Source of the DNA: Antechinus flavipes
Taxonomy: Eukaryota
Length of the DNA: 64,000 nucleotides
NCBI RefSeq assembly: GCF_016432865.1
Contig: NC_067403.1
Span: forward strand, 261,578,001-261,642,000
Reading direction: 5' to 3'
This document shows, one piece after another, positions 16,301 to 44,661 of the stretch; within the stretch, counting starts at the first letter, position 1; the number at the start of each line of letters is the position of its first letter. The position numbers and the translations under genes are program-made. Below the pieces are notes generated by a model that had not been told where the DNA came from, made no database searches, and was given only the letters and a program-made list of their open reading frames with translations.

Positions 16301-19300
16301 CCCAGAGGCCGCCTGGCAAAGAGACAGCTCTGCCCGGGTCCTGCTGAGGGTCCCGGCATTTCTCCCTTTCACCATCCGCGCAAACTTCAGTCACTCAGCT
16401 TGAGACGAAGAGGACGGAATCGTGGGATTGGGAGAGACCCCCGCGAACTGCCGCTTCCCCTCCCCCCTCCCAGGCGCTGGCTGGGCTTCTGTGGGCCGCA
16501 GGACCTGCCCGCATTAGGGGCGCGACCCGACATTTGCAGCTGGAAGTGGGCGCGAGGCTTCGCTCAGCGAAGAGCCGAACAGGGCGCCCCTCCCACTTCT
16601 CCGGGCACAAAATTGGGGTAGAATTGTCAGCCTCGGGGCGGACTCTCCCACAGAGTGGGGGTGGGGGAGGGGAAGCCCCAAAGATTGGCTTTGGAAATGC
16701 TCCTTAGGGGAGGGGCGGAAAGAGAGAGAGAGGCGCGTTCCGGCTCCAGGTTATTCTAAAGCCACTTGGGGAGCCAGCGCGCTTTTAGGTCAATTTAAAT
16801 TTTAAATAGGAACCGCGGGCTCCTTTCCGGCCCAAAAGAAACAAAGGGAGGGTCCAGCCTCTCCCCCCCATCCCCCAAAGGAAGGAGTGACCGCTGGGAT
16901 TGCTTTCAAAGAAACCCGGCCCATTGGCCTCCACTTGAAAGCCCCCAAGGTCCCACTTTGCGCCCCGCTCCCCAGCAGCCGGCCCTTGTAAAAATGGGCC
17001 GCAAGGTTTGAATGGGCCGTGGACGGGCGATTCTAGCAGACTGTCTAACGGTGTGTCCGTGTATTTTAACATATTTAACATGTATCTGTCTACCTGCCCT
17101 CCGGGGGAGGGGCGGGGGGGAGGGGAAGGATGGGAAAAGCTGGAACAAAGTTTTGCTGAAAAGTTACCCTGCATGTTCATGTTTTGTAAATAAAAATCTT
17201 TGCAGAAAGGGGGGGGGGGGCAGCTAGTTGGTGTAGTGGGCAGAGCACTAGCTCTGAAGTCAGGAGGACTGAGTTCAAATCTCACCTTAAGCGCTACTTC
17301 CTGGCTGTGGGACCCTGGGCAAGTCACAACCCCGAATCCTCAGCAAAAATACTTTTTTAGAAGAGGCAATTCTTGCTTCGACTTGGCCGTTAGGGGCAGG
17401 GACGGGAGCGAATGTCCCTAAGGGTCTGGGTTCGGCGGCTGAGCCCCGAGCCAATGCTGGCCCTGGGCAGGCAGCGCCCTTTCGGGGCCCCCACTTTCAG
17501 AGTAGTCAGAAGGCTCCAGACGAAGGAGGGCGGGCGGGAAAGGCCGAGGCGGAGGGGCTCTCTGGCTTTTCCCGATCCAGGCTCCTTGTTGGGCATCAGC
17601 CTGGCGCCCCCTGCTCAGCAGCGGTTACATTGCCCCCCAAACCGGGATTCCAAAGGAAAGCCAATCTGGGAATCTCCCGGGGTGAGGGCCCCAAGTTCAG
17701 AAACCCTCCGGGGGGTGGGGGAGGGAATAAATGGCTCGGCAAAAGGAGCCCGGGATTTGGGCGGAGGCCAAGGCAGAGGCAGCTCCCCCAAGGAGGAAAT
17801 CTCGTTGGAGGCCCAGAGTCTGAAGAGACGTTGCCAGAGAGGAGGCCCCTGCGCCCCCCCCTCCCCCCACAAAGAACCGAGTTCCGCCTGTGGCCAAAAG
17901 CGAGCTCTCCTTACCCATTTCCGGGAGTCGTAAACCACCCCGGGCCAGTAGTAGGACTTGGTGACATTGCCCCCGGTCTTGCGGATGCCCAGGTGCCCCC
18001 GCTCGGAGATGTGGGCCTCCAGGAACGCCTGCCTCTTCTCCTCCAAAGTGAAAAGGATCTTCTGCTTCTTCCCTCGGCCCTTGTAGTAAAGGTGATTCCC
18101 TGGCGAAAGAGCCAAAGCCCCGAGCGGCCTCGTGAGACCCCGGAGCTTACCCCCCACCCCACCCCCCGGCGGTGACCTTGGCCCTCGACCTCTGCCCTCT
18201 GGGCCTCTGTTCCAGCAGCAGCCGGTTCCCAAGTCCACGGACACTCTCAGCCCTGGACTGGAGGAGGAGGAGGAGGACCCCGGGGTCCTGATTGCCCAGC
18301 AATGCCCCCCCCTCCCCAAAGACTGCACAGCAAAAAGCACTTACCAGCCCAGTCCTGCTGGGGGGGAGGGGGAGATAGGTGAGAGCAAAATACCCGGGGG
18401 GGGGGGGTCAGGAAGGAGCCGGGTTTGCCCCTTTGAGGCTTCCTTTGAAAGGAATCCCGGCTGTCACTCCTCCCCTCCCCTCCCGGAGGAGCCTGGGACC
18501 TGCCTCTGGGTCCTTTTTGCCAGACCTGAGCCCACGGTTCCCATTTACAAATTTAAAACCGGGCTGTGTGACCCTGGGCAAGTCCCTTACCCCGCCTGCC
18601 TCAGCCAAGAAACACAAAAGCCAGGGAAGCAGGTGGGGGCAGCTGGGAAGGGGGGGGGGTTCGGGAGAGGGCACAGAGGCTGGGATGGGGGGGGCCATCC
18701 TCCAGCGCCTCAGCTGGAGGGAGGGACGAGGATACAGCGGTTTAGTGGCCGATTATTGGCCGCCTTTTATTATGTCAATGGCCTCCCCAGTATTTCAATG
18801 GCTTCCTCCTGCCTTCCTCCCCCGCTCACTTTTCTCCCTCCCGCTGCCCCCCCTCCGGCCTTTGGACTTGCTGAGTCCTGGGGGGGGGGAGAATGGGGGG
18901 ATGTTACTCTCCCCCCCAACACACACACACAGAGCCCTACAAATTACCCCCCATCTCCTCCCCTCGGAATCGCCAGGACTCCCCCGCGGCCAGACGCGCC
19001 CCCCAGTATTTGCTCTTCTATCTGGATGCCCCTAAAGACGGGGCAGCAGGCGGAAGCGGCCCCTCTGCGCTCGGGCCGGGGCCTCCCTACCTGCCACCCC
19101 CAGCTGTGCTCCCCTCGGTCTGCAGGGCCTTGAAGCCCCTTCCCCCTGCGTCTCCTCGGACCCCTCCCCCAAGCTTCCCACAGTGCCCGGCACAGAGTGG
19201 GCTTCCCCCCCCAGGAGACCCACGGGAGCAAGCTCCGGGGGGCACCAGCCTTTGTTCGGCCCAGAACTGGAGAGCAGCCGAGGGGGGGAGCAGCCGGGCC

Positions 19301-19791
19301 AGGGCGCGATAAGGGCTGGGGTGCGGCCGGGCCGGGGGCACAGTAAGGGCCAGAGAGGGCAGGAGGACCCCTGGGCTTCTAGCCACCGACCTCCGGCCAC
19401 AGGTGAGGGGGGAGGGGTCTGCGCTGGGAGCTTTGACCTAGTCTAGGAGGAGGCAGCTTGGGTTCAGGAACTGGGGGGAGGGGAAAGGCCATCCAAGGTC
19501 AAGTTCTGGGGCCCAGTGAGGGCTGAGGAGCTCCCGGCAGGAGAGAGACACTGACCTTCCTGGAAGAAATTGGCCTTCTGCAGCAGCTGCCTCCTCAGAG
19601 CCTCCGGGGAAGAGCCGGCCTTCAGAAGCTGCAGAGCCGTGGCCTGGGGGGAAGGAAGCGGCCGTCGGGGAGGGGGGCTGGGGCCCGGGCCTGCGGCGCG
19701 CCCCCCCCTCCCCGCCGCACCTGGCTCACCGGCCGCCCCCCACCCCCCCCTGCCCCCTGCTCACCTGGCGCTCCCTCCGAAGGGACTCCAT
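10355..19791 (-). CDS. GIN/Ginger1-like integrase-PHD gene, copy A (about 425 aa, 10 coding exons)
   Basis: Exons with GT/AG sites and matching phase: 19791-19765 (MESLRRERQ); 19643-19556 (ATALQLLKAGSS...NFFQE/G); 18099-17915 (NHLYYKG...EAHISERGHLG...YYWPGVVYDSRKW); 14513-14451 (VKECKKC...); 14291-14166 (basic linker); 13430-13197 (ARGLFHLVGLQLVGP...VDHYTRWVE...RFGFPERIVSTQCGGFVQQ); 12942-12836 (LNQIL...YHPQAHGLLEKTNSFVR); 12323-12233 (...VDWDLQLQKILFLQNRDSYN); 10982-10764 (acidic linker, EDTCSYC...FTM); 10492-10355 (LQCESCRGWVHHMC...FQCRLC...*). No stops or frameshifts. Confidence 0.88.
11127..11250 (-). mobile_element. tRNA-derived SINE (WSINE1-like)
   Basis: The reverse complement reads gggcagctggtggcgcagtggacggagcaccagcccgaagtcaggagccgagtc...gtgtgaccccgggcgagtcacttagccccaactgcctcagcaaa, with A and B boxes. 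Confidence 0.85.
11433..11852. repeat. Composite minisatellite (37-bp and 24-bp units), intronic in copy A
   Basis: Interspersed ggccaaagcccggggcggcctccaatacggagaccg(g) and ggccaaagcccttacggagaccgg units. Confidence 0.92.
15895..16265. repeat. Purine-rich gacaggcgggcagg-type minisatellite in a copy A intron
   Basis: Repeated gacaggcgggcaggcc, ggggaaggacagg and cagagaaggg modules. Confidence 0.9.
17040..17195 (+). mobile_element. L1 3' terminal fragment
   Basis: acatatttaacatgtat...gggggagggg...ggaacaaagttttgc...aaataaaaa. Confidence 0.7.
17218..17350 (+). mobile_element. tRNA-derived SINE (WSINE1-like)
   Basis: gggcagctagttggtgtagtgggcagagcactagctctgaagtcaggaggactgagttcaaatc...cctcagcaaaaa. 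Confidence 0.85.
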
Positions 19792-27000: not shown

Positions 27001-28777
27001 CCGCCGGGGCCACTCCCTTACACTTCTTAGCTCTGACCTAGGAACCAGCAGGAGGCGTCTGCAGGAGACTCCGAGAAAGACTGTCTCCCCCGCCCAGCCC
27101 CCTGCTCCCCTCAGAGCCCCCCCCAGCTCTGCCCGCAGGCCTCCCCGGCCCTTACCCTGGCACTCTGGGCCTCCTGCTTTGCTAACTTGTCTCTCTGGCA
27201 CTTCTTACACTCCTTCACCTGGGGATGGGAGAGCCCGAGCTGAAGCGGGGGTGGGGGGCTGGCCTCCGGTTCGTGACCTCCCCTCCCCTCCCCCCCAGCC
27301 GTCACTCGAATCCTGGGCCCTTCCTATGGGCGCCTTCCCGCCAGCACCCCGGGGGCGGGGGGGAAGGAGGAGGGGGATGCTCCAGCAGCTCCCAAGGTGG
27401 AAGGAGGCCCTGCGGGAACCTGGGCTTCCCGGAGGTGGAGCTGCCCAGCTGGGCGCTGCCAGGGAGGGGCCGAGGACAAGAGGTGACCTTCCAGCCACAG
27501 AGCGGGGCACGGAGCCCAGAAAGGGAGGCTGGGAGCGGGCCGGCCCCGTGCAAGGGCTCGGATTGTCCGGCGGCTCCTGGGAGCCTCCGTCCGTCCCTCC
27601 CTGCCGGGGACCCCCTCCCCTGGGGCCCCGAAGCTCAGCCTCTCTGGTTTCCCGGCAGGAAACGGGGATCACGCCGGCCGGGCCCTCACCCACTGCCGCG
27701 CGTGCAGCGTGATCCGGGGCCAGTAGTAGGACTTGGTGATGTTGATGCCGGTGGCCCGGATGCCGTGGTGCCGCTCGGCCGAGACCACGTGGGCCTCCTC
27801 GAAGGCTTCCCGCTTCTTCTCCGGGGTGAAGAGCACTCTCTGGAACTTGCCTTTGCCCTGGTAGTACAGCACGCCGCCTGGGGGCAAGCAGGCCCGCTGG
27901 GCGCCCAGGACCGGCTCAGGGCCCCCCCAGACTGCTCTCTCTGCCCCCCCCATCGGGGCTCGGCCGCCCCCTCTGGGCCGGAGGCCGGTGCCCCCCATCC
28001 GGAAGCTGCTGATCGAGGCCCGTCTCTCACTGCCCCAAACGGGGGCCTCCTTGCCTGCCGCCCCGCGGGCGTTTTCAGTCCTTTCCCATCTCTGTGGCAA
28101 AGACATTGCCGCAATTTCCTTTTCCACCCATTTTACAGATGAGGAAACTGAGCGGCTAGGAAGGGTCTGAGACTGGATTTGAACCAGGAACAGGAGCCTG
28201 ACTCCAGACCGGGCACTCCTGGCCCCCGAACAATAAGAAGGCCCCGAACCTTTGGGGTTCTACGTCCCCAGGCCTCCTGCCTAGAGGATGGCTTCCCCAC
28301 AGGTGGGCAGAGCAGCCTTCCTCCTCCAGGCCCGGCTCTCCCATCCTTCCTTCCCTTTAAGGGAAGCTTGGGAAGCCACAAGCCGCCCCCCCCCCCCACG
28401 GCCTTCCCTCCCCCCGGACACCCAGGCCCTCCTCCTGCCCGGTTAGGGAAGAGCGAGACCCAGGGCGTCCGAGGCCTGGGGACAGGGATGGGATCCGGAG
28501 CCCTGAGGTCCCCTGGGACGGGCTGGGAGCCAGCTCAGGACCCTGTCACAGGGAGGTCCACAAGCCCCCGGCAGCTGCTCGTACAGTGGTCAAGATCACG
28601 GCCGAGGGGCCCTGGCCGGAGTCACACACGCGGTCCGCGGCTTCGCGGAGAGCCGGACACCCTGGGCTGTATCCCGGGGCCGGAGAAACACTGACCTTCC
28701 AGGACAAAATTGGAGTTCCGACTCAGCTTCCTTTTGACGGAAGGGGTCGGGGAAGAGGTCATCCTCAAAAGCTCCAT
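24030..28777 (-). CDS. GIN/Ginger1-like integrase-PHD gene, copy B (about 410 aa, 9 coding exons)
   Basis: Exons: 28777-28696 (MELLRMTSS...NSNFVLE/G); 27877-27690 (GVLYYQG...EAHVVSAERHHG...YYWP...RQW); 27218-27156 (VKECKKC); 27037-26909 (linker); 26520-26287 (core 1); 25649-25543 (LNQIL...THGLLEMTNAFVQ); 25475-25397 (ANWDLELPNVLFLQMQ); 24679-24458 (acidic linker, EDTCPYC...FTM); 24158-24030 (LQCGACQSWAHRTC...FRCRAC...*). All junctions are GT/AG and in phase, with no disruptions. Confidence 0.9.
25955..26240. repeat. Minisatellite of about 18-26-bp units, intronic in copy B
   Basis: Repeated gcccctgattacccacag and gccccgagcccccaattaccgacag. Confidence 0.92.
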
Positions 28778-29199
28778 AGTCCCGACCTGTCCAAGAAAAC
28801 AGCAGCCGTTGTGGCCGGAGCCAAGGCCGGGAACCCGCTAAAGCTGCAGAACTGCCGCCCGGACAGAAGCCCCCCCCCTTTCCCAGAGCAGAGGTTTGCC
28901 AGCTGGGCAGGGTCCGGGCGTGCCCTGGATGGAGGAAGTCAGAGGGTAAGTCGGAACCCCCTCCCCCTCCGCCCCCAACCCCCTCCAGGAGGGAATCCTT
29001 CCCCTTCCCTTGGGACAATTCCAGACCAGGGGAAGTTTACTGCAAAAGTAAATCCTCCACCGGCCGGGAAAGGCCCAGGCCCGAACTAAAACCCAATCAG
29101 CCTGGGGATCCAATGCGGCCTAGAGCCTCGAGAACCTTTAAAGGCTCTGAGGAGGCCGGGAGGAGGCCGGGAGCAGAGGGAAGGAGGAGGAGGCTTCCC

Positions 29200-30390
29200 A
29201 GGCAGAGCGGGACACTTACAGATTACCAGGCAGCGAATAGCAGCCCCCTCCCCCTGTCCCCCCCCTCCTCCCTCCCTCCCTCCCTCCCGAGTTGAGCGCC
29301 GCGGGGCAGAGGCTGGGCCCCAAGCCGGGGCCTGCTCGGAAGCTGGCGGCCTCCTGGCTACTGGACCAGCCTCAGTCTGCCCGGGCCTCAGTCTGAGGCC
29401 TCTAAAGGCTTTTCCGGCCGCAGCCGCTCTCCCCCAGCCCGCGGAGAGCCTCACTTTAACGCGGAACCGGGGCAGGTACTTTCCCCTCCCAGCTAATCAG
29501 CGCCGAGCAAGGACTAAAAGCCTGGGGTTTGAGCTGCTCGGGAGCACAGGCGGCCAATCAGCGGCCACCAGGCCGGCGCTGCCCTCCGGGCGCTTCCAGT
29601 CACGGGAGCTGACAGTATGCGAGCTCGATCCTGGAGGCGGAGCCTGGGCCAGTCACTGCGCCGAACCCACCTCAGTTTCCTCATCTGTAAAATGAACCGG
29701 AGAAAGTGGGGAGCCCAGAAAACTCCCCCCCTCTCCCCGCTTGCCCGTGGCCCCGTTGGGCTGAGGGGGCTCCCGAGCTTTGCTTAGCAGTGTCCTAGAA
29801 GGCGCTTCCTAAGTGACTAAGGCCTGCTAAGTCGGTGACTCTGGGGCAGACAGCGGAGGCCGGAGCTCCCGCGGACGGGCAAGAGTCCGGCCCAGCCATC
29901 CTGGCACACGCGCGTGCACCCCCGCAAACATGGCCGGGCTGGGCGTTCTCCCAGGTGGCCGTGCGGGGGCCACGGGCTGTGGGGCGGGACCGTAACTAGC
30001 ACCAGCCCGCTGGGTCACCCGGGTCAATTGCGCCGGAAGCACGCCCATTACCGGCTTCTCTCCCCCCCTCCCTCTCTCTCTCCCCCTCCCCTCTCATCCC
30101 CTTCCCCTCCCAGCCTCCACCCGCAGCAGGCCCCGCCCCCTAGCCGGTCCTCGTAGATCAGACGCCGGGTCAGAAGGTTGCCATCGGGAATAAGCCAATT
30201 GCAGCCCACGAGGGAGCGGCGGGAGGGGTGAGTCCGGCCCCGGGATGCTGGAGGGGCTCTGGGTGGGCCGGATTCGCCAAAGGGAGAGGGGTGTGAGGGC
30301 GGAGACTGAGGGAGAGGAGGCCCCGCCCCAGAGAGCCCGGAGAGGAGACCTTGCTCCGGTCCTCTCCCTCCCACTTCTAGGCCGGGAATC
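29200..30390. promoter_or_regulatory. Putative bidirectional CpG-island promoter with non-coding first exons of copy B (-) and copy C (+)
   Basis: CpG-rich, with CCAAT boxes (~29556, ~30195) and GC boxes. There is a - strand donor GTAAGT at 29219-29214, a + strand donor GTGAGT at 30228, and a + strand acceptor cttctag at 30380. Confidence 0.6.
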
Positions 30391-31629
30391 ATGGCAGGCG
30401 CTGGGACTCTGAAGGCCGCCTCCAGCTCCTTCCATCTGTCCCAGATGGACCAGCTTCCTCGCAGTAGCCCAGAGGCAAGTGTGCTCGTTAGACCGGGCGT
30501 CCCGGGCCCAGACGGGCCTAGATGGGTCCCCTTCCTCCAAGTCCCCGAGAGCTCCGGGCCCACACGGGCCCAGACGGGCCGCTTCCTCCAAGTACCTGAG
30601 CGCTCCCAGACGGGCCGCCGCCTCCAAGTACCCGAGAGCTCTGGGCCCCGGGGGGACCAGCCGGGCCGCCGCCTCCAAGTACCCGAGAGCTCTGGGCCCC
30701 GGGGGGACCAGCCGGGCCGCTTCCTCCAAGTACCCGAGAGCTCCGAGCCCACACGGGCCCAGACGGGCCGCTTCCTCCAAGTACCCGAGAGCTCCGGGCC
30801 CACAAGTGCCCAGACGGGCCGCCTCCTCCAAGTAACTGAGCGCTCCGGGCCCTGGGGGAACCAGACGGGCCGCTTCCTCCAAGTACCTGAGCGCTCCCAG
30901 ACGGGCCGCCGCCTCCAAGTACCCGAGCGCTCAGGGCCCCGGGGGAACCAGACAGGCCGCTTCCTCCAAGTACCCGAGAGCTCCGGGCCCCGGGGGGACC
31001 AGACGGGCCGTCTCCTCCAAGTACCTGAGCGCTCCGGGCCCAGGGGGGACCAGCCGGGCCGTCTCCTCCAAGTACCTGAGCGCTCCGGGCCCAGGGGGGA
31101 CCAGCCGGGCCGCCTCCTCCAAGTACCTGAGCGCTCTGGGCCCACACGGGACCAGCCGGGCCGCCTCCTCCAAGTACCCGAGAGCTCCGGGCCCCGGGGG
31201 GACCAGACGGGCCGTCGCCTCCAAGTACCTGAGCGCTCCCAGACGGGCCGCCGCCTCCAAGTACCCGAGAGCTCCGGGCCCCGGGGGGACCAGCCGGGCC
31301 GCCGCCTCCAAGTACCTGAGCGTTCCGGGCCCCGGGGGGACCAGCCGGGCCGCCTCCTCCAAGTACCTGAGCGCTCCGGGCCCAGGGGGGACCAGACGGG
31401 CCGCTTCCTCCAAGTACCTGAGCGCTCCGGGCCCAGGGGGGACCAGACGGGCCGCTTCCTCCAAGTACCCGAGAGCTCCGGGCCCCGGGGGGACCAGCCG
31501 GTCCGCCGCCTCCAAGTACCTGAGCGTTCCGGGCCCAGGGGGGACCAGCCGGGCCGCCGCCTCCAAGTACCCGAGAGCTCCGGGCCCCGGGGGGACCAGA
31601 CGGACCAGCTTCCTCGAAGCAGCCCAGAG
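30391..31629 (+). CDS. Candidate first coding exon of copy C: 413 codons made largely of a 17-aa repeat
   Basis: Acceptor at 30380 and a strong Kozak context (aatcATGG). The frame is open through the whole array and ends CCAGAG|GTAAGT in phase 0, in frame with the copy C acceptor at 38416/38417. Splicing across the 6.8-kb intron is inferred. Confidence 0.55.
30525..31602 (+). repeat. 51-bp tandem array (22 units; three are 36-bp variants)
   Basis: Unit gggccgcttcctccaagtacccgagagctccgggccccggggggaccagac encodes GRFLQVPESSGPRGDQT. All length variants are multiples of 3. Confidence 0.95.
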
Positions 31630-33109
31630 GTAAGTGTGCTACTTAGACCGGGCGCCCCGGCCCAGACGGCCCCAGACGGCCCCGGACGCCACGCTTCCGC
31701 CGAACAACTGAGCTCTCCGGGCCCAGACGGCCAGCTTCCTAGACGTTACCCCGAGGGCAGAGTGCCGGGCTGGGGCCCTGGGGGAGGGCAGTCCGCAGTG
31801 TGGGAGTGTTTTCCCCTCCCTCTCCCCTCCCCGCTTCCCGCTGCTTTTCTGGCGTCTCCCCACCCCCACCCCGGCGGTGCAGTCACAGGCAGGGGGCTCC
31901 AAGCCCGGCCCGCCCGGGGATTGAGCGCGCGAGACTGACTGGGCTCGCTCGGCCGCCTTAGCCTTGGCTTTCCCTGCCCCGCCCCCAGCTTTGGGACTCC
32001 TTTGCAGCCGCAGAACTGGGAGTGCGGGAACTTGGGAGGGAAGGAAATGGGAGCTGCGGGACTGGGCCTGCGGTCTTTGGGAGGAGTCCTGGGGTCTTTA
32101 GTGAGAAGGAGCTGCCCAGGGTAGGGGACTCCATGCGCGGCTAGGGTCCCCAGGGGCGCCTGGGTGAGCTTGAAATGCTCTTTCTCCCGGGCCCTGAGGT
32201 CGCCACCTTCCTTCAACCTCCTCTTCTCTCCTTTTTGGAGACCCTCTGGAGAGAGTGTCTGAGCTTGGATTTGAACTCGGGGCCAGGTCAATGCCCCGTC
32301 CGCATTTACCCGGTTTCCCCTTCCCCCTCCCCTCCATGCTGCCAAAAAGCCGGCCGTTCCCAGCTAAGCCTAGGCCCCGCCCCCTCCCCAGGAAAGCGGT
32401 TTATTTTTATTTTTTAAATACATATTGTTTTAGGAATCACGTGGGAGAGGAAAATCAGAAGGAAGGGAGGAAAACACCAAAAAGTGAACCTGGCCTGGGT
32501 CATTGGCGTTCACGGCTCTTTTTGGAGCAGATATTTCTCTCCCGAGGCTGGGGGGAGAGGGGCCGCGGAGCAGCTTCTGGGGCACTCTCTTCCCCAGTCC
32601 GGGCACTTGCGGAGGCTTCCTGCTCCGTTAAAAATCTCCCACAAAGTAGCTCTAAACCGAATTCCACTTTGCTACTCATCAGGAGCTCGGGGGCGAGAGC
32701 CGGATCAAACTATACTAGTGGGAACTTCCCCAGTCCGGGCACTTTACATTTTAAGTTGAACAAATTCAAACAACTGAAAAATTATTTAAAATGCTCAGCC
32801 CCAAGTTAGAATTTGGCAGGTATATAACCAGCTGATCTCAGAACTATTTGTTACAAGCAACTGAAAAATGACTCATTCTCTAGTTTAATTATTGAAACTG
32901 GAGCAGAGATAATCCTCCAGCGACCAATTAATCAACATGCATTTTAGGAAATGTGTTTTGTAGTCTTGTATTGATTGGGGAAGTAACAGTGCATTAAGTA
33001 TCAAAGGGCTTTGCTTCAGAATATTCCTAAATCTTTTCTATTTCCGTGGGATTAAGACCCTCTCTGAAATTTACTTGTCAAAACTTCACAGCCCTTTACT
33101 TTCTTTTTT

Positions 33110-34280
33110 TCTTTCTTAATTTTTTTTATTGCTTTTTATTTACAAGGTATATGCATGGGTGATTTTACAGCATTGACAGTTGCAAATCCTTTTGTTCCAA
33201 CTTTTCCCCTCCTTCCCCGTCCCCTTCCCCCATGGCAGGTTGACCAATACATGTTAAATATATCAAAGTATAAATTAAATACAATATAAGCATACATGTC
33301 CAAACAGTTATTTTGCTGTACAAAAAGAATCAAACTCTGAAATAGTGTACAATTAGCCTCTGAAGGAAATCCAAAATGCAGGTGGACAAAACTAGAGGGA
33401 TTGGGAATTCAGTGTAATGGTTCTTAGTCATCTCCCAGTGTCCTTTCGCTGGGTGTCGCTGGCTCAGTTCATTCCTGCTCCATTGGAACTGATTTGGTTC
33501 ATCTGATTGTTGAAGAGGGCCACGTCGGTCAGAATTGATCATCATATAGTATTGTGGTTGAAGTATATAATGATCTTCTGGTCCTGCTCATTTCCCTCAG
33601 CATCAGTTCATGTCAGTCTCTCCAGGACTTTCTGAAATCCTCCTGCTGGTCATTTCTTTATTTTTTAAAAATAATTATAATTATTTAATAATAATTATTG
33701 ACAGAACCCATGCCAGGGTAATTTTTTACAACATTATCCCTTGCACTCGCTTCTGTTCCGATTTTTCCCCTCCCTCTCTCCACCCCCTCCCCCAGATGGC
33801 AAGCAGTCCTATACATGTTAAATAGATTACAGTGTATCCTAGATACAATCTATGTGTGCAGAATCGAACAGTTCTCTTGTTGCACAGGGAGAATTGAATT
33901 CAGAAGGTAGAAATAACCCGGGAAGAAAAACCAAAATGCAAGCAGTTTACATTCATTTCCCAGGGTTCTTTCTTTGGGTGTAGCTGCTTCTGTCCATCCT
34001 TGATCAATTGAAACTACAATAAATCTCTTTGTCGAAGAAATCCACTTCTATCAGAATACATCCTCAAACAGTATCATTGTTGAGGTGCATAATGATCTCC
34101 TGGTTCTGCTCATTTCACTCAGCATCAGTTCCTGTAAGTCTCTCCAGGCCTCTCTGTATTCATCCTGCTGGTCATTTCTTACAGAACAATAATATTCCAT
34201 AACATTCTTATACCACAATTTATTCTCGATTCTCCAGTTGATGGGCATCCACTCAGTTTCCAATTTCTGGCCACTACAAG
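33110..34280 (-). mobile_element. Two adjacent 5'-truncated L1 3' ends (about 33110-33660 and 33665-34280)
   Basis: ORF2 C-terminus ENKLWYKNVMEYYCSVRNDQQDEYREAWRDLQELMLSEMSRTRR, 3' UTRs and T-rich tails on +. Confidence 0.9.
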
Positions 34281-35419
34281 AAGGGATAGCCCTTTACTTT
34301 CAACTTTACACTATCAGTGCAAATAAATCCCTTTTCTTTACCCATTCACTGGTCCTTAGTTTTTCTTATTTCCTCATACAGGGTTACTCTTTCTTCTGTT
34401 TACTCAGTTTCTCTAGTAAACCCCTTTTTGGTTCTGTACTGGGTACAGATACAACAGTTCCTACCAATTTCTTTAAGGGTCTTTGGGCAATCGATTAGTT
34501 ACAATCATTGTTTTGTTTTTATAAGTGACAGGCAAATAGACTCAAAAACAACTCAGTCCAACAAGCTCCTCTTTTAGGGATGTCACAGATTTTCAAAGGC
34601 AGGATGATTTTAGAGAAGAAACCAGTTTTTTTCTTTTTTCTTTCTTTATTTATTTGAAACCAGTTTTTTTCTCAAAATTAATCTCTCTTATGCTAGAAAA
34701 AAACATTCATCCGGTTATTTTGGCAGTGCCCAAGAGATATGGTCAAAGCACAGGAACGTAAGGGAAAACTATAATAGAGAGTATACTTTTCTGAAGGACT
34801 CAGATGTAATTTTTTATCTATTTCTTTTCAAATCGCCCAAAATGAAGTCCATTTATTTTGTTCTTTAAATAATTTGCAAGTTCTGCTTTTCCCTTCCAAA
34901 ATCTCAGTATTTTATAGCTTTATAAACCATATGCTCACTTTATTCTGATCTTTTCCAAGCACTTTGTCCTAGTTGTGCATGTTAATTTCTGTATCTATTT
35001 TATATGTATACATATATACACATAAATGTGTGTATATATTTGTATGCGTATTGTTCAGTTGTATCTTCAATAATTCTTTCCCTAACTTACAGCCTCATTA
35101 TACAATTTGTACTTATTTTCACTAACCAAGTGATTTCAACACATTTTTTCTGTGCTTTTAATTTACCTAAACAACTGATTTAAACTGCAGTGCTAGCACT
35201 GAATTTCACTTGCCTTCAGTTGCTTTCTGATTTCAAAATAAGTTTTCTTTTTCTGGGAGCATTTTGGGACCCACCTTCAATCAGTGTCCCAATCAGGATA
35301 TATTTGGTGCTTTCAAGTTGGTTGTTTAAAAACAGTAAACATAGGAGATAAAATGAACTCCAATTCTACTCACTTTTATCCTTTTCTTGTTCCTTATTCT
35401 GCCTTCTAGTATCTGCAGA

Positions 35420-35900
35420 GGGCCGGACTCTGGACAGGTTTACTTGAAACAAGGTGTTTAGCTCGGTGGAATTGATGAGATGATGCTTCTCTAGTTCCCA
35501 TAGATACTTAGTGCTTAGCACGGTGATGTCATGATTCTCCAGTTCCCATAGATACTTAGTGCTCAGCGTGATGATGTCATAGTTCTCTAGTTCCCATAGA
35601 TACTCAGTATGGTGATGTCACAGTTCTCTAGTTCCCATAGATACTCAGTGTGGTGATGTCACGGTTCTCTAGTTTCCATAGATACTCAGTATGGTGATGT
35701 CACGGTTCTCTAGTTTGCCCACGCTCAGTGTGGTGTAATGATGTAATTGTACTGAGGTATATAAGGGCTGAGGACTGGAAGTGAGACACTGCACCTCTGA
35801 CCAGCCTCCTGCTGGCCCTCCTGCCTCCTGCCTCCTCCACCTAAAGGCCCTCCAGAACTTATCCCAACTTTAAGTACAGTCGTTAAACAGGGGTTTACTG
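35420..35900 (+). mobile_element. LTR-like element with internal ~40-bp tandem repeats
   Basis: Repeated gtgatgtcatagttctctagttcccatagatactcagt, followed by a TATATAAG box (~35757). The same repeat recurs at 37015-37080 and 37465-37570. Confidence 0.6.
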
Positions 35901-36764
35901 GGTGTGATTGATGGTTCTCTATGCTTGGTGCATGGGGCGATGTCATGGTTGTACAGTTGGCACATGCTCAGTGTGCCGTAGTGATGTCATCGCCCTGAGG
36001 TGTGTAAGGGCCGAGAGGCCTGGGAACTGCTGTCTCAGACGCTTTCTGTGGGAAGTCCTGGGGCTCGGGGAGTTGGAGATTTTTCCAAACAAATCCCTGA
36101 ATATTACAGTGCCCACCCTCAGGCTGCCCCATGGGAAATGGCTGCGCTTGCTTCATAGGAGACGGGGAATCTGCGGGTCTTCAGAAGGAACAGCCAGTAA
36201 GGCAGGTCCCTGGGGCTCGGTCCAGTTCTTTTCAGGCAGTTACTCAGAAGTGGGGCTCCTGGCCCGGACCCCTGCAGGAGAGGCGGGGTCGGGCTTAAGG
36301 GGAGCAATGCATCCTAAGGGCTCCCAATTAGGCCGGGTTTTTCTTCCTGCACTGTCTGAATCTCCTTCTAATCCCTCCATTAGGGGCCGGTGGATCCCTT
36401 GGATATGGGGCTTGGGGTCTTCTCTCACCCTGTCCTCTCCTCTCTTTGCCTCCGTTGAGCTTTCAAATCCCCTGTTTTTCCACATTCACAGTCTCGTCTC
36501 CTTGCCTGGGGCCCGGGCCAGCTTTCGGGAGGCCCTCGGAATGGGACTTGTTTCTGGGGGGGAGGCAGGAGGCCCGCGGCGGTCTCCGTCTCGGTCCGAG
36601 CGCTCGTGCTCCAGCCTCAGCCGCTGTCTTTCAGTCCCCCCTAGGTCTGACTCTGGCCTCTTAAACGCTCTATTACAATTAAATGCACTCATCCCACTGA
36701 GTACCAGCCAGTCATTACATCACCAGGGAGCCACCATTTGTTGCAAGATTAATTGAGTCACTAC

Positions 36765-37790
36765 ATGACCTGATGCTGAGGGAAACGAGCAGGACCAGGA
36801 GATCCTTATATACCTCAACAACGATACTGTTTGAGGATGTATTCTGATGGAAGTGGATCTCTTCCATAAAGAGAGCCTTAATTGATCAAAGATGGACAGA
36901 AGCAGCTACACCCAGAGAAAGAACACTGGGAAATGAATAGAAACTGCTTGCATTTATGTTTTTCTTCCCGGGTTATTTCTACCTTCTGAATTCAATTCTC
37001 CCTGTGCAACAGTGCTCAGTACTCAGCAGGTGATGTCATGGTTCTCTAGTTCCCATAGATACTCAGTATGGTGATGTCACTGACCCGTCCACCAGGTCAT
37101 CAAAGTGTGGGTCCCGAGGCTGGCATTTGTCTGTAAGGCTATGCCTGAAACGTAATGGGGTTAGAAATGAGGAGGGAGACTAGTTGGGGTGAAACAAAGT
37201 CTCAGTTTAATGAATGAAGAGGGTCCAGTTATATACATTTCTGAGTGGGGGGTAGCAAAGTAAAGAATGTCACACCAGATGTGTGGCAGACATCCTGGAG
37301 CCTAATCGTTATCTTGCACCTGGGCTGATAGGGCCAATTTTCTGGGATACACATCATCTTGTCTCAGGAGTTTAGGGTGTATAGTTTGTTTACGATAAGG
37401 TTGTAGCTTCAGAATTTATGTGCAGGCGATTACATTCTTCTTTAGCTCTTTGATTCCAAGGACATGGTCTCAGTACTCAGCAGGTGATGTCATGGTTCCG
37501 TAGTTCCCATAGATACTCAGTATGGTGATGTCACGGTTCTCTAATTTGCCCACGCTCAGTGTGGTGTAATGGTGGAGGAATTCTGCACACATATATTGTA
37601 TCTAGGCTATACTGTAACCTATTCAACATGTAAAGGGCTGCTTGCCATCTGGGGGAGGGGGTGGAAGGAGGGAGGCAGAGGAAAAGTCGGAACAGAAGCG
37701 AGTGCAAGGGATAATGTTGTAAAAATTACCCAGGCATGGGCTCCATCAATAAAAAGTTATAATTATGAAAAAAGAAAATGAATTGTAGAG
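36765..37790 (+). mobile_element. L1 3' end interrupted by nested LTR-like sequences (inner LTR about 37081-37465, - strand)
   Basis: The L1 3' UTR stops at about 37012 and resumes at about 37580, ending aataaaaagttataattatgaaaaaagaaaa. Confidence 0.7.
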
Positions 37791-38434
37791 ATTAATATCT
37801 GGCTCTCCTTTTACACAAATGAATTGCACGTAAAAGCAAAAGTGTAATTAGTATCCAATTATAGTTGTTTGGAATCCAGCAGTTACCCAAGAAGTTCTTA
37901 TTAAATATTTCCTATATAAATGAAAAAAAGACATTAATTGAGTCACACTGAACTAGTGAACTATTGGTCACTGAGCTAAACTAGAGAACCACTGTCTCAT
38001 CCATACCACTGAGTTAGCACCTTGTAAGGACTCTGGTTTGAGAGTTCTGGCCCATTACAATAGGTGACCCCTGCCCTTCCCCAGTAGGTGACCTCTGCCC
38101 TTCCCAGTCCATCCATACAAAGCCGGGGCTGCAGTTTAATTTCCTCCAGTTTAATTCCACCCTCATCAGTTGCCGGGAACGGTCGGGTCCTTTGTCCGCT
38201 GAGCCCCAGTTTCCTCTCGGTTGATTGGGGTCACCGATGCAGATCCCATCGGACAGGTGGCTTGGGCTTGGGGCTTGGGGGAATCTTGTTCAGTGAAAGC
38301 AAAGCTCTGGGTCCTAGGTCATTTTCAGTGGAGGACTTTTGGGGGAGGGCGGGCTGAGGGGGAGGGGCGCAGGTGGGGCCAGCCGGACCTTACCTCTTCT
38401 GTCTGTCTCTCCCCAGAGTCCTGAGTGCCCGCTC

Positions 38435-41400
38435 ATGGGCCCAGCGGTGCAGGCCGGGGAGTCGGGGAGCCTGGCTCCTGTACGGGCCGCCCAGGTGCCG
38501 AGTGCTCCGGGTCTGGGCTCCCCGGGGGCCGCCCAGGTGCCGGGTGTTCCGGGTCTGGGCAGCCCGGGGGCCACCCAGGTGCCAGGTGTTCCAGGTCTGG
38601 GCTCCCCGGGGGCCACTCAGGTGCCAGGTGTTCCAGGTCTGGGCTTCCCGGGGGCCGCCCAGGTGCCAGGTGTTCCGGGTCTGGGCTCCCCGGGGGCCGC
38701 CCAGGTGCCAGGTGTTCCGGGTCTGGGCTCCCCGGGGGCCACCCAGGTGCCAGGCGCTCCGGCTCTGAGCTCCCCGGGGCTGGCCTCTGGGGATGCCCTT
38801 CCAAAGGCAGGATCTTCCTTGAAGACGAGACGTTCTGCGAAAGGTGGGTGTCTCTACAGACTTTTTGGGCGGACGCGGCTGCAGGAGCTCGGCCGAGGGA
38901 GGGCCCCTGAATCGGACCGTTAGCTCCCGCTGGCACCGGCCTGGCACCTGGAGAGGTGGCGGCTGTCAGGAAAGGCCCTCGGTGGATGGCAGGGCTGAGG
39001 TGGGCCGCGGGCAGCCAGCCAGTTCTGTCTCCCCTAGAGGACGCCTTCTACAGCCGGAGGAGAAATCGGAACCAGAAGTTTCTCTTCCTCGAGGCGGAGA
39101 AGAAGAAGGCCTTTTGGGAGGCCCACGTGGTGCAGCACAGGCACTACGGCGCGCGGACCACCTGCACCCACCTCAGGAAGAAGTACTACTGGCCGGGCAT
39201 GGCCCTCGACGTCAAGAAGTGGGTAGGAGCGGGTACGGGGAGGGCGGGCAGCCGGTTGGCACGGGGGCATCCCGATCCTGCCTCAGAACCCCCGGCAGGC
39301 GACCCTGGCCAGCTGTGTTCTCAGGCACCTGGGCCCCCATGGCCCCGAGCTCCCCCTGGATCCTCTGGCCTTGGCCAGGCTGCTCCCTCATGAGTCCAGG
39401 GGCTGGACCCCAATGGACAGTGACGGCCCTAGAAGAGGCGCTCAGGGGGCTGGGGGGCTGGGCCTGGATCCCCTAGGGAGCCCCTCCCTCTGGGGATTTC
39501 ATCCAGCTTGACCTTAACCCAGGAATAGGCTGACTGGGGAGACTTGGTGGACCCAACCTGCCATGGGCAGACAGCTGAGAGCTCACCCACTGCCCGGGGC
39601 CTGTGCCCATCAGCAAGAGGGATTGGGGATGGGGAGGGGCACTGCCCAGAGGGGCGACCTCGGCTGGGGCCCTCAAGTTCAGTTTACCCCTCTATACAGT
39701 GGGTACTGTGTGGGGCAAGCCCTTGTGGATCACTGACTGTCCGGTCTGCGCAAGTCCTTGCAACGTGAATGGGAAGTGCCCACGAGAGCGGGGGAGCAGG
39801 TCGGGGGCCGCCAGCCCCCTCCCATCTCTGGGCGGACCCAGAAGCCCTGTGCTCTCCTCACCCCCAGGTCAAGATGTGCAGGAGATGCCTAGACAAAAGC
39901 ATACGGACCGCGGCCCACAATGCCCTGGTAGGTGCCTCAATGGGGGGCCCACGGGGCAGATGGCTGGGACTGGGGCTGAGAGGGTCAGGAACCTTCTTAG
40001 CCTCCTGGAAGCAAGGGCATGGGGGGATGGGGGAGTCCTGTCCCTCTCTCTCACCCTCCTGGAAGCAAGGGCATGGGGGGATGGGGGAGTCCTGTCCCCC
40101 TCTCTCACCCTCCTGGAAGCGGGGGGATGGGGGAGTCCTGTCCCCTCTCTCACCCTCCTGGAAGCGGGGGGATGGGGGAGTCCTGTCCCCCTCTCTCACC
40201 CTCCTGGAAGCGGGGGAATGGGGGAGTCCTGTCCCTCTCTCTCACCCTCCTGGAAGCGGGGGGATGGGGGAGTTCTGTCCCCCTCTCTCACCCTCCTGGA
40301 AGCGGGGGGATGGGGGAGTTCTGTTCCCCTCTCTCACCCTCCTGGAAGCAAGGGCATGGGGGGATGGGGGAGTCCTGTCCCCCTCTCTCACCCTCCTGGA
40401 AGCTGGGGCGTGGGGGGATGCCCCTCTCTTGCCCGGATGGGGTCATTTGCTGCTTCCCCTCGGTTTGAAGGAAGCCGGATCGCAGCAAGCGCCTCAAGGA
40501 GACGGCAGGATGGATCACTTCCCGCTAGCCCAGGTACCGGGGCGGGGGCAGCGGGGGAAGGGGTTCTGGTTTCTGGCAGCTCCAGAGCTGGGGTGGATCA
40601 TTTTTAGTTGTTCTTTTCTCATCAGCAGAAGTTGCACGTTCTCTCCCCTCAAGGAGGGAGACCCAAAGCAGCCCCGCGAGGCGCTCTCTGTCCCTCCCCC
40701 CGGGCTGCCACTTCTGTGCCCGGGTGGGGCCGGGGAATCTTTACCTCCTTGGGGCCAGTTCAGGGGAGCGAGGGTCCATCATCGGCTCCTCCCCACCCTT
40801 ACACAGGCTTCTCTCTTTGGTGCCCCTGGCGCCCAGGCTTCCTTCCTGCCCCCGTCCCACACAGTTCCCCCCGGGCTTTCCCTGAGTGTTTCCTTGTGCT
40901 CGCCGAGCCCCTATCCGAGCCCGGGCTCTTCTCCCCCCTCCGCAGGAACAAGGGCTCTTCACCTTTGTCAGCTTGCAGCTCCTGGGGCCCCTGCGGCAGA
41001 CGGCCCAGGGATTCTGCTTCGCCTTCGTGGCCGTGGACTACTTCACCAAGTGGGTGCGCGCCGCGCCCATGCATTCCTGCTCCGTCAGGGAGACCAGCGC
41101 GCAGATCCTGGAGCTGGTGAAGAGGTTCGGGTTGCCAGAAGGGATCATCAGCACCGCGTCGAGCAGTTTCATCCTCCAGGTATGAAGGCGCCATCGTGGC
41201 CCCAAGTGGCCCACGGTCAGGGCCGGGGCTGCAGGGAGCAGGAAGCGAGATCCTGGCCCCTTAGCGCCACAGCTCAGCCGGGACGCTGGGCTGGGGGGCT
41301 CTCGACCCCGAACGTTCTCCTGGGGAGTCCCTGTTTGCCTCCGTCTCCCCTGGATGGGAGGGGGGCGAAGATGGGGGCAAACGGGGCCTGTATTGAATGC

Positions 41401-44218
41401 TGGGCATCCTGACCAGGCAAGCTGGGTGCGGGAGTGGGATGCTCAGCATGAGAGAGGCAGTAAAGCGCGGCGAGCAGGGAGTGCCGGGCAGGAGCGGTGT
41501 ACGGTGCTGGAGGCAGGTGGGGACTGGCAGGGCGGCCTCAGGAAGGGGCAGCTCCGGGCCTGCTGGGCACTGCGCCGGCCCCCACACACACACATTCTTG
41601 CCACATAATCATCCTTCTCATTCCCTTTTCTGTGAAATACCACCCGGTGACAAAACGTTCCGCCACATGCCGGGAATGGGCGTTCCTCTGAGTTTCTGAT
41701 TCTCGGCCCCCACAGAAAGGGACGCTTTAACACTTGGGTCTACGTAGGCCCCTTTGCTTTTCTGCTTCGGAGATAACAGGTCCAGGCTGGGCCGGCACTG
41801 GATCAGAGACACGCAGTTTAGGGCCTGAAGGCAGAGGTAGCTCTGGATTGCTTTCCAAAGGGACCACAGCTCCACCAACCATGTAGCAGTGTTCCTCGTG
41901 GCCTCGCCAACAACTTGCATTTTCGTTTTTTGTCATCTTGAGCCACTGGTTCCCATTGGAACCTGAAAATTCTTCTTTGGTCTTGCAACTCTTTAATTCT
42001 TCATGCTTTTGTGTATTGGGGGGGGGGGGGATGTTTTGGGTTTTTAAATTTTTGTTTTTGATACAGATTTTGAGAACTTGCATTTTTTTTCCTAAAAGCT
42101 TCCTTGCAGAGTTGCCTCGACACAAAGGAGAGAGCGTGGCTACCTGCCCTTATGGAGCCCAAGAACCCCCTGGGGACTGAAACTAATAGAAGTTAGCTAG
42201 CTAGCACCTCAGATATCCTAACAGCATGTTGGGTTGCCTTGTGCGTAAGGGAGTAAGTTCCCCATCATCCAAGGAATCCAAGAAATTAGATTTTCTTTTG
42301 CGTCTAGGGGAGGTCCCTTGAAACTGGAATGGCAGCCCAGCCACCACCTCTTGTGACTGGAGCTTCTGCCCTTCTGCCTCGAACCCCAGAGTGGCCATAG
42401 CTTCCTTGGCCCCTCTCTTCTGATTAATTGGGGTTTTGGTCTTATTCTTTCAGATAAACAAATTTTTGAAAATGGCTTTGAAAATGCAAAACAGCCTGGT
42501 TGTTAAATACAATCCCCAAACAGATGGGTGCCTGAAAAGCATCAGGTCCTTTGTGACTAGGTGAGCTTCACCCGGGATGGGGGGACAGGCTGGGGGCCCC
42601 GTGGTCTGAGCAGCTTCTCCCTGTCACCTCCCCTTGGATCCTGATGGGCCCCAGAGGAGCGGGTGGCCACCTAAGCAGGCTGTGGAGGGTGTGCCCATCC
42701 GGATGGAGCTGCCCGTGTGCCTGTGTTGCCCACTTAAGTGGGCCATGGTGGGCGTGTCCACCCAGATGGAGCTTCTCATGCTGCCTATATAAGTGGGATA
42801 TGATGGCATGCCCATCCAGATGGAGCTGCCCGTGTGCCCGTGTTGCCTACTTAAGTGGGCCGTGGTGGGCGTGCCCATCCAAAGGTGCCCGTGGCCCCGG
42901 GAGGGCCCGCACTAAGCCCTGGCTGTAGACACGACCCGGCCCTTTGGGCCCCCACATTTCAGGATCCTTTCTCTGGTGCTGATCATGAACCCGACCGACT
43001 GGGACCACCACCTGCATAAGATTTTCTTCCTCCAGAACCGGTGTTCGGACTACTTCGTAAGTGCTTGGCTGGCAAGGCCGGCCTCCCCCTGGAGGGGGCA
43101 CCTCTGGGCTAAGGGCCACTCGGCTGGTCAGGCGGACGGGCTTGGGAAGGAGGAGGTGTGAGTGTGGGGCTTGGAGGCAGGTCTTGGGGCCCCTTCGGGA
43201 GCAGTCCTGGGCCAGCCCGGCTCTGTCCTGGGCCCCGTGGCCTCTGCCTCAGTCATCACTTGTCACGCTCCCCAGACGCCTCCTAGCTGGGCGAGACACT
43301 TCATGGTGCTTCCCTCAGTTTCCTCATCTGTAAAATGGGAGAAGGAAATGGCCAAGCCCCCCAGTGTCTGCCAAGAAAGCCGCGAATGGGGCCATGGACA
43401 GACACAACTGGAGACTATTGGACAAAAACTGGGGGAAAGCGGAGGGGGTCCGGTTGTGGGACTGCGGCCGGGACGACGTGATCCATAGAACTGGATGGCG
43501 GGTGAGGGCCGGAGAGCGGGCTGTGTCCAGGGGACTCGGGCCTGACCCACAGGCCTCGTCCCGTCTCCGTCTCTAGGAGGAGGAAGACGAGGGTGACCTG
43601 AGGAAGCTCCATGGCGAGTCACCAGGGGCTGCCTGGGCCCCACCCCCGCGGGTCCCAGAGCCCCCACAGCCCTCCCCAGAAAGCCAGAGGGACCCCCCGG
43701 CCAAAGCCCAGGGCGAGGACACCTGTTTGTATTGTTGCCGGCTCCCGGACGAGGGGGACAGTGACGTGTTTGCCGTGGTGAGTGGGCCAGCCCGGGCCCC
43801 TGAGGAAGGCAGACCCTGCCTGGTCCTGGCTCTGGGGGGGAGGGCTTGCGGACTCCTGGAGGGCAGGACAGGGAGGGAAGGGACAGGGCTTAGCTGGGAA
43901 GGAAAGGGGGATGCCCCTGCCACCCACCACCCCCACTCACGCGTGGACCTTGTCCCCTCCCCCCAGGTGCAGTGCGACAGGTGCCCGGCGTGGGCCCACG
44001 AGCAGTGTGTGCGGAGGCAGCTTGGACGGGTGGACCCCAAAATTAGCCTCCGCTGCAAAACCTGCCTCCTGGCAGTTGTTGGGGCGCAGCCAGGGCCCCA
44101 GACCCCCAGGGCTCTGGGAGCGGGGGACGGCGGGGCAGGCAGCGTGGGGCCCGCGGGGGGGCCGGGCCCCCAGCGTGGCCCAGGTGTGCCCAGCCATCAG
44201 CTTCCCCCTTCCAAGTAG
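38435..44218 (+). CDS. GIN/Ginger1-like integrase-PHD gene, copy C (534 aa from the ATG at 38435; up to about 953 aa with the upstream repeat exon)
   Basis: Exons: 38417-38843 (...LPKAGSSLKTRRSAK/G); 39038-39222 (DAFYSRRR...EAHVVQHRHYG...YYWPGMALDVKKW); 39868-39927 (VKMCRRC); 40471-40533 (linker ending LAQ); 40946-41179 (EQGLFTFVSLQLLGP...VDYFTKWV...RFGLPEGIISTASSSFILQ); 42454-42560 (INKFL...YNPQTDGCLKSIRSFVT); 42963-43056 (NPTDWDHHLHKIFFLQNR); 43577-43777 (EDTCLYC); 43967-44218 (VQCDRCPAWAHEQC...LRCKTC...*). The core exons have the same lengths as in A (185, 234 and 107 nt). Confidence 0.9.
38488..38780 (+). repeat. 42-bp coding tandem repeat (about 6.5 copies) in copy C
   Basis: Unit encodes PGLGSPGAAQVPGV. 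Confidence 0.92.
40008..40410. repeat. ~46-bp minisatellite (about 8 copies), intronic in copy C
   Basis: ggggggatgggggagtcctgtccccctctctcaccctcctggaagc; some units carry an extra aagggcat. Confidence 0.92.
42690..42890. repeat. Imperfect ~54-63-bp tandem repeat (about 3.3 copies), intronic in copy C
   Basis: gtgcccatcc.gatggagctgcccgtgtgcc.gtgttgcc.acttaagtgggcc.tggtgggc. Confidence 0.8.
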
Positions 44219-44661
44219 CTGGCGGGCCCTGAGGCCGCACGAGTGCCGGCTCCGGCTGGGACTGGCAAAGTCGCTCGGGCCAACGCCCGTCCGGCCTCCT
44301 CGATAGCCGACATCTGGTTGTTCCCAGTTTTTCACATCTGTTTTTCAAACTCCGAGCTCCGGATTCTCTGACCTGGTGCCCCCCGGGGGACCTTTGTGGG
44401 TGGGAGTCCGAGACTTCTGGGAAACCCTCCATTTTCCCTCTGGTTTCCATGAAGCTGGGACGGTTGAAAGTGGCCAAGGGCCATCACTTGGGCGCCCGCC
44501 TGCCGGGGGGGCCGCTCTGCCCACTGCGTGGGCGCAGGAAGCCATCACACCGGGAGTGCGTCTCTGGCCCAGGACCCCAGGCCCACCACCTCCTGACAAG
44601 GAGCGTTCCTTTACCCGTCTGTGGGGCGATTGCTTGCAGTTTTGCTCTGCCCAAATGGGGC

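Follow-up and report, generated by a model that had tools for sequence, protein, structure and literature searches.

A tandem repeat between duplicated splice donors as a predicted exon extension in a transposase-derived gene of the marsupial Antechinus flavipes

The 64,000-nucleotide (nt) stretch of the Antechinus flavipes genome examined here (NC_067403.1, positions 261,578,001 to 261,642,000; the window) carries three paralogous, transposase-derived genes, copies A, B, and C. In copy C, the end of the exon that contains the start codon is duplicated together with its splice donor, and the two donors, the first GC and the second GT, enclose an in-frame array of 22 tandem repeat units. Splicing from the first donor gives a model of 568 amino acids (aa) and splicing from the second a model of 953 aa. 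Both models share nine exons downstream of the donors, all with AG/GT borders, and neither contains internal stops, in agreement with an earlier note on this DNA. Judged by its relatives, the short form is real and ancestral, because a protein model from the Tasmanian devil and the exon junction preserved in a retrocopy both lack the array. Inclusion of the array in the exon via the GT donor is plausible, and the long form is likely the main product, with a probability of about 0.55. That the long form is made is a prediction from the DNA.

Duplicated exon end and its splice donors

The features of this region, all on the plus strand, are as follows.
30228-30380 (+): putative short intron in the 5' untranslated region, recognised by motifs only (GTGAGT donor, pyrimidine tract, TAG)
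30381-30474 (+): ATG exon of the short, ancestral form (ATG 30391, 28 codons); 25/28 residues identical in devil model P0023, 52/74 nt in a retrocopy
30445-30515 (+): block 1, the original exon end, with the GC donor at 30475-30476 (7/8 consensus positions); matches the retrocopy at both silent sites that distinguish the blocks
30475-30534 (+): 60-nt spacer, a duplicated former intron start, open in frame
30535-31599 (+): tandem array of 22 units (18 of 51 nt, 3 of 36 nt, 1 partial), reading LQVPE(S/R)SGPRGDQ(T/P)GR(L/F/R)
31600-31670 (+): block 2, duplicate exon end, with the GT donor at 31630-31631 (8/8 consensus positions)
31671-31765 (+): single decayed unit and third degenerate block, no donor

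Of the two block copies, the first starts at 30448 and has the donor GAG/GCAAGTGT (exon end 30474); the second starts at 31603 and has GAG/GTAAGTGT (exon end 31629). The slash marks the exon border. Both donors are in phase 0 from the ATG at 30391, after 28 and 413 codons, respectively, and both are in frame with the acceptor CAG/AGT at 38417, exactly as described before. They lie 1155 nt apart, with the frame maintained throughout. The first donor, GAG/GCAAGT, departs from the consensus at positions -2 to +6 solely at +2. The second agrees with it at every position, while the other eight donors of copy C reach 5-6 of 8. Across 11 donor positions, the sole change between blocks 1 and 2 is T/C at +2. 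Both derived changes in the exon part of block 2 are silent. The sequence AGGCAAGT occurs five times in the window.

The duplicated piece is larger than the ~68-bp block of the earlier note. It measures ~130-150 bp and comprises the block, the spacer, and one repeat unit; a third, decayed block is located near 31725-31765. The unit was amplified in the first copy. In the second copy it is single and decayed, and is followed by the third block, which has no donor. There is also a likeness between the repeat unit and the exon end, with a score that 3 of 2000 shuffles reach. This likeness, together with the anatomy of the duplication, indicates that the region is an old composite minisatellite spanning the exon-intron border.

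The ATG exon may be internal, given the donor motif at 30228 and the TAG end at 30380. The suggestion that it mirrors the first exon of copy A (27 nt, phase 0) holds for its position, but the sequence similarity of the two exons is not significant (145/2000 shuffles).

Tandem array and its reading frame

The array has 22 unit starts, and its last unit runs into block 2. The three 36-nt units are letter-identical, which points to one deletion that was copied rather than to three events. The earlier statement that all unit deletions measure 15 bp is therefore correct in length but describes a single event. The 385-residue insert is rich in Arg (61), Pro (56), Gly (56), Gln (45), and Ser (36), with a net charge of +21, and is encoded by DNA with 40% C. 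From composition alone, these extra ~385 residues are predicted to be disordered.

The plus frames of the array contain 0 (the reading frame), 1, and 12 stops, and the minus frames 0, 1, and 1. The claim that this is the only open plus frame thus stands, but one minus frame is open as well, and the probability that a given frame has no stop is 0.58 given the observed variants, so that the open frame by itself is weak evidence. The consensus unit has no stops in any of the six frames. A 565-aa open frame on the minus strand was rejected as a candidate gene because its first Met is near its end and its third positions are common with the reading frame. Among the matches listed in a genome DNA search with the first 240 bases of the array, only this array was found. 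The block pattern had no matches in metagenome contigs, and a comparison of the array open reading frame (ORF) with the ESM Atlas gave no lead (best 0.87, recognition 809). An exact look-up of the unspliced read-through ORF found no entry.

Short form and its age

The devil model P0023 begins with MAGAGTL...SQTDQLPRSSPE, followed by SPECQL. This corresponds to the 28-codon exon joined directly to the exon at 38417, with no array between them, and the identity over the whole model amounts to 463/512. A weak match was found for the N-terminus of bilby P0007 by local alignment, with 8 of 5000 shuffles reaching the score for the first 40 residues and 70 of 5000 for the whole protein; a BLASTP comparison of exon 1 with bilby gave no match.

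A retrocopy in the same genome (L021; G000:C1:~413.34 Mb, at ~413.3425 Mb) aligns with 30401-30474 and continues without a gap into the sequence from 38417 onward, with 28/45 identical positions. The genomic continuations of blocks 1 and 2 agree with it at only 11/45 and 15/45, and it has no match to the array. The proposals that a 28-codon exon starting at ATG 30391 is spliced to 38417, and that the short form came first, are thus borne out by the devil model and the retrocopy and, weakly, by the bilby protein. The retrocopy agrees with block 1 at both block-distinguishing silent sites and with block 2 at the Thr codon. Block 1 is accordingly the original exon end, and its ATG at 30445 is recent. 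With an identity of ~70% the retrocopy is old and, for this reason, uninformative on present-day splicing. The second retrocopy of copy C (L023) has no match to exon 1.

We also considered translation from ATG 30445 behind an acceptor-like CAG (30444), with ATG 30391 in an intron. For the ancestral form we rejected this reading: the retrocopy covers 30401-30444 (34/44), and the devil protein has Thr at the codon in question.

Downstream exons of copy C

The remaining exons of copy C are as follows.
38417-38843 (+): exon 2, which contains an in-frame ATG at 38435 and, at 38483-38776, a further in-frame array (7 units of 42 bp)
39038-39927 (+): exons 39038-39222 and 39868-39927, integrase H2C2 zinc-binding domain (Pfam PF17921, above cut-off)
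40471-43056 (+): exons 40471-40533, 40946-41179, 42454-42560, and 42963-43056, linker followed by an integrase-like core in which the first catalytic Asp is absent
43577-44218 (+): exons 43577-43777 and 43967-44218, PHD-like finger (Pfam PF00628 below cut-off; Cys/His pattern) and stop

The unit of the array in exon 2 is GAAQVPGVPGLGSP. Its in-frame number rises from ~1 in the retrocopy to ~3 in the devil and 7 in A. flavipes. Both the 51-bp and the 42-bp units read QVP; the similarity between them is borderline (72/2000 shuffles), and no claim of homology is made. The RefSeq model P0021, A. flavipes LOC127540579, equals the last 254 residues of the copy C model. Nine RNA-type sequencing runs from a relative contain 5-6% of the sequence words of 38400-44300, an overlap that we do not count as evidence.

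Intron 1 of copy C contains 41-bp repeats with a TATA-like motif at 35483-35715, which recur at ~37000-37570. They look like an insertion of the long terminal repeat (LTR) type and could serve as an alternative promoter.

Predicted long form and alternative explanations

As the first donor is GC and the second GT, splicing would likely move mostly to the GT site. The frame survives the spacer, the repeat period, the one deletion, and 15 G-runs; the chance of this is ~0.02 as a rough product, (1/3)^3 x 0.58, and this figure is biased because the finding was chosen for its open frame. Among distinct unit variants, 10 of 23 changes are synonymous versus 27% expected (P=0.059), the joint highest value of the six frames. 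Pooled with the changes in block 2, the count is 12/25 (P=0.02, post hoc). The full consensus match of donor 2 and the in-frame repeat growth of the next exon also speak for the long form.

A number of observations weigh against the long form as the main product. The repeat was absent from all 7990 candidate proteins of 693-2000 aa and from all 26 fetched proteins. A phmmer search with the repeat against 1.84 billion representatives gave 14 weak matches (20-39% identity), and the three that were inspected are unrelated repeats. P0021 is letter-identical to copy C but begins at residue 315 of the short model, so that neither N-terminus is present in it. If the ATG exon is internal, the long form requires an exon of 1249 nt, compared with 94 nt for the short one. 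The context of the GC site is the best possible for such a donor (7/8), and GC donors in nature are overrepresented in first introns and at alternative 5' splice sites (PMC7242645). The antiparallel frame of the array is open too. The synonymous test has low power: the 42-bp array, which lies in an exon supported by orthologues, shows only 4/13 and no excess.

Three other explanations were considered. Appreciable use of both donors, with tissues choosing between the 568-aa and the 953-aa protein, is unlikely, although the GC donor is perfect at every other position from -2 to +6 and both donors are in frame. Such a switch would also accord with data on human protein-coding genes, where alternative 5' splice-site events involve 31.6% of GC-AG introns and 10.1% of GT-AG introns (PMC7242645), and with the positional advantage of an upstream site (PMC1557585). 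However, the good context of the GC site is simply common with block 2 and hence no proof of selection, AGGCAAGT has five occurrences in the window, and most GT>GC changes abolish use of the site (PMC7324893). Alternatively, the GC site might be the donor in use. The array, together with block 2, would then be a minisatellite inside the intron, within a CpG island, and its frame would be open by chance. The database and fossil evidence is all for the short form, the consensus unit is stop-free in six frames, a short exon has the usual exon size, and even stronger downstream pseudo-sites remain silent in human F7 (PMC1557585). We consider this quite unlikely nonetheless: period, deletion, and flank would all have to be multiples of three by chance (the ~0.02 above, before selection bias), a perfect GT site would have to be ignored in favour of a GC site, and there is a slight synonymous excess.

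The third possibility, which we regard as very unlikely, is that transcripts skip the ATG exon or start downstream of it, with translation from ATG 38435 or from within the integrase exon. P0021 (copy C), P0024 (copy B), P0006 (copy A), and P0008 begin within the core exon or close to it, the starts of P0005 and P0022 lie elsewhere, and there is the putative upstream donor at 30228. Against this, all of these are predicted models, from which GC-rich 5' exons are often missed, and the first exon is kept in the devil, weakly in the bilby, and in the retrocopied mRNA. A simple picture of two isoforms is likewise complicated by P0005, which starts inside an intron end, by P0022 with its other first exon, and by P0021 with its start at residue 315. 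A search of 29001-38417 gave no first exon of the 'MN' type seen in devil P0022.

Proposed mechanism and precedents

Predominant splicing at the GT donor could have arisen as follows. An in-frame duplication of ~130-150 bp would have doubled the 3' end of the ATG exon together with its donor, and donor 1 would then have been weakened from GT to GC; this direction is assumed on the sole basis that GT donors are in general excess. Splicing would have shifted mostly to the GT site, which lengthened the exon by ~43 codons. The unit inside the newly coding part would have multiplied in increments of 51 and 36 nt, and the corresponding unit downstream of donor 2 would have remained a single copy and degenerated. 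In this way the 22-unit array would have entered the mRNA, and the N-terminal tail of the protein would have grown by repeat expansion. The GC site retains all other consensus bases and may leak some of the 568-aa product. The basic tail would likely alter nucleic-acid binding or self-association.

Precedents are available for the individual steps. In human F7, donors are duplicated by a minisatellite and the first one wins; once it is inactivated, the next is used (PMC1557585). When GT is changed to GC, normal transcripts persist in about 15-18% of cases, at 1-84% of their usual level (PMC7324893). Disordered regions are frequently encoded by long C-rich exons, which can originate through repeat expansion (PMC9825244). 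Together with the behaviour of GC-AG introns, these cases favour the sequence of duplication, weakening, shift to donor 2, and expansion.

The closest parallel is the variable number tandem repeat in F7 intron 7, where a repeat over the exon-intron border duplicates the donor and loss of the first activates the next. As described there, however, the extra donors of F7 are silent and its 37-bp unit breaks the frame (PMC1557585), while in copy C the first donor is altered in the reference, the donors are 1155 nt apart, and everything between them is in frame. With GC-AG alternative 5' splice sites (PMC7242645, PMC7324893) copy C shares a weak GC donor with otherwise full consensus, a position at the 5' end of the gene, and an alternative GT; the use of the GC site is putative here, and the alternative region consists of a lineage-restricted repeat of 1.1 kb. 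Exon elongation accompanied by disorder (PMC9825244) resembles this locus in repeat expansion and intron exonisation outside folded domains, and in a C-rich sequence with a product rich in Pro, Gly, Arg, and Ser. It differs in that the likely route, donor duplication and weakening, is still legible in the DNA of copy C, with translation being predicted.

If the long form is made, the locus is an unusually legible record of exon growth, consisting of donor duplication, weakening of the first copy, and in-frame expansion, with the ancestral mRNA kept as a retrocopy in the same genome. It would also be a natural test of first-come donor selection versus donor strength over 1.1 kb. A more far-reaching interpretation, of which we are doubtful, is that the gene is gaining a tunable disordered domain: with the donor detuned to GC, tissue-specific choice would toggle a 385-residue basic tail, of variable length between animals, on a chromatin-binding protein that belongs to the marsupial domesticated dead Ginger-type transposases with a PHD-like finger.

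The findings also point to an uncharacterised marsupial trio of transposase-derived genes. A list of ten domesticated marsupial genes in PMC3670739 does not include it, although supplements to the papers cited may contain such genes. We did not find the locus in the literature, where coverage of subscription journals was thin. Each single mechanism is known; what is new is that they occur together in these uncharacterised genes, alongside a fossil mRNA that records the preceding state.

Gene trio and its transposase relatives

The two other members of the trio are as follows.
10355-19791 (-): paralogous copy A, open model with the same core exon borders; wombat P0004, tammar P0002, retrocopy L013
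24010-28777 (-): paralogous copy B, in head-to-head orientation with copy C; its 3' end is approximate and one mini-exon unresolved; devil P0001, wombat P0003

All three copies encode an H2C2 domain and a PHD-like finger, as well as an integrase-like core from which the first catalytic Asp is missing. PF17921 was above cut-off in all five orthologues and paralogues scanned and in three exons of the window. The rve domain was below the Pfam cut-off for copies A and B and gave no match for copy C; rve clusters were recovered at 0.95 for the integrase-like core in the ESM Atlas, and we counted the core as gypsy-like. For the PHD-like finger, PF00628 was below cut-off and the Cys/His pattern was present in 6/6 orthologues and paralogues. 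The profile of three core exons matched 20 proteins from 726 candidates. The eight strongest (E <1e-28) are all marsupial (devil, wombat, tammar, and bilby). The other 12 are weak, 11 of them plant-named and one unnamed, and include plant LTR integrases.

The DDE triad is not intact: six of six proteins have L-Q-L-(V/L)-GP, compared with VDLMGP at a GIN1-like locus (G000:C1:206.44 Mb). No GPY or GPF motif was found between the core and the PHD finger in these six proteins; the sole GPF, at residue 542 of P0007, is located behind the finger. In an informal comparison with the N-terminal YPYY motif, copies A and B show ..NF.xEG.LYY and copy C is degenerate. Two phase-0 introns, before V..C..C and after F.xQ, are common to the trio and the GIN1-like locus, and three introns are common to the trio and a locus at G000:C1:715.33 Mb; these positions were compared with loci of this genome.

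At least three close intron-bearing copies, all in the window, were found in a genome search, plus processed pseudogenes, both counts being lower bounds. One processed pseudogene derives from copy A (L013, G000:C3:~277.51 Mb) and two from copy C (L014/L023, C1:~241.67 Mb; L016/L021, C1:~413.34 Mb). They confirm the exon joins and imply past germ-line expression.

The trio is not the best match to GIN1 in this genome: a separate locus, that at 206.44 Mb, which we take to be of the GIN1 type, is only 28% identical to the core exon of copy C. This locus (L015, L036, L037) retains the first catalytic Asp. Nor is the trio at the place of GIN2, which sits between OGFOD2 and ABCB9 (PMC3424704); neither of these was recognisable within 10 kb of either side of the window. 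The left neighbour of the trio is a C2H2 zinc-finger gene (4265-4909, minus strand) whose coding sequence lies largely in a single open frame. It is presumably ZNF511-like.

GIN1 and GIN2 descend from Ginger1 transposases, which can have a PHD finger (PMC2836005). The trio shares with GIN1 and GIN2 an H2C2 finger, a gypsy-like integrase core, a single locus, and orthologues in several marsupials, and its intron positions may correspond to theirs (PMC2836005, PMC3424704). Unlike GIN1 and GIN2 as described in these sources, it consists of three tandem paralogues, has lost the first Asp, lacks GPY/F, carries a C-terminal PHD-like finger, and has another neighbour. In behaviour the trio appears to resemble a Ginger-type transposase that has been domesticated; it is a relative of GIN1 and GIN2 but separate from both. 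Judging by its domains, copy C probably encodes a transposase derivative that has no catalytic activity and binds chromatin or DNA.

The locus at G000:C1:~715.32-715.34 Mb (L012, L034, L035) is a fourth intron-bearing dead-integrase gene with the same exon borders. It has a long coding tandem repeat (PEPAQQP-like) near its 3' end, and no PHD match was found in it. As far as examined, it is not at the published position of GIN2. It adjoins an exon that resembles what we take to be a CASTOR/GATS gene.

Models of the three paralogues in the database (P0006, P0008, P0021, P0024) often begin in or just before the integrase core exon. These are either annotation artefacts or real short isoforms without the zinc finger. 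The CpG-rich stretch at 28777-30391, between copies B and C, contains CCAAT- and GC-box-like motifs and is likely a shared promoter of the two head-to-head copies. At 62620-63081 on the plus strand, the window contains a fragment that resembles a retroviral integrase region, with a weak MLVIN_C match.

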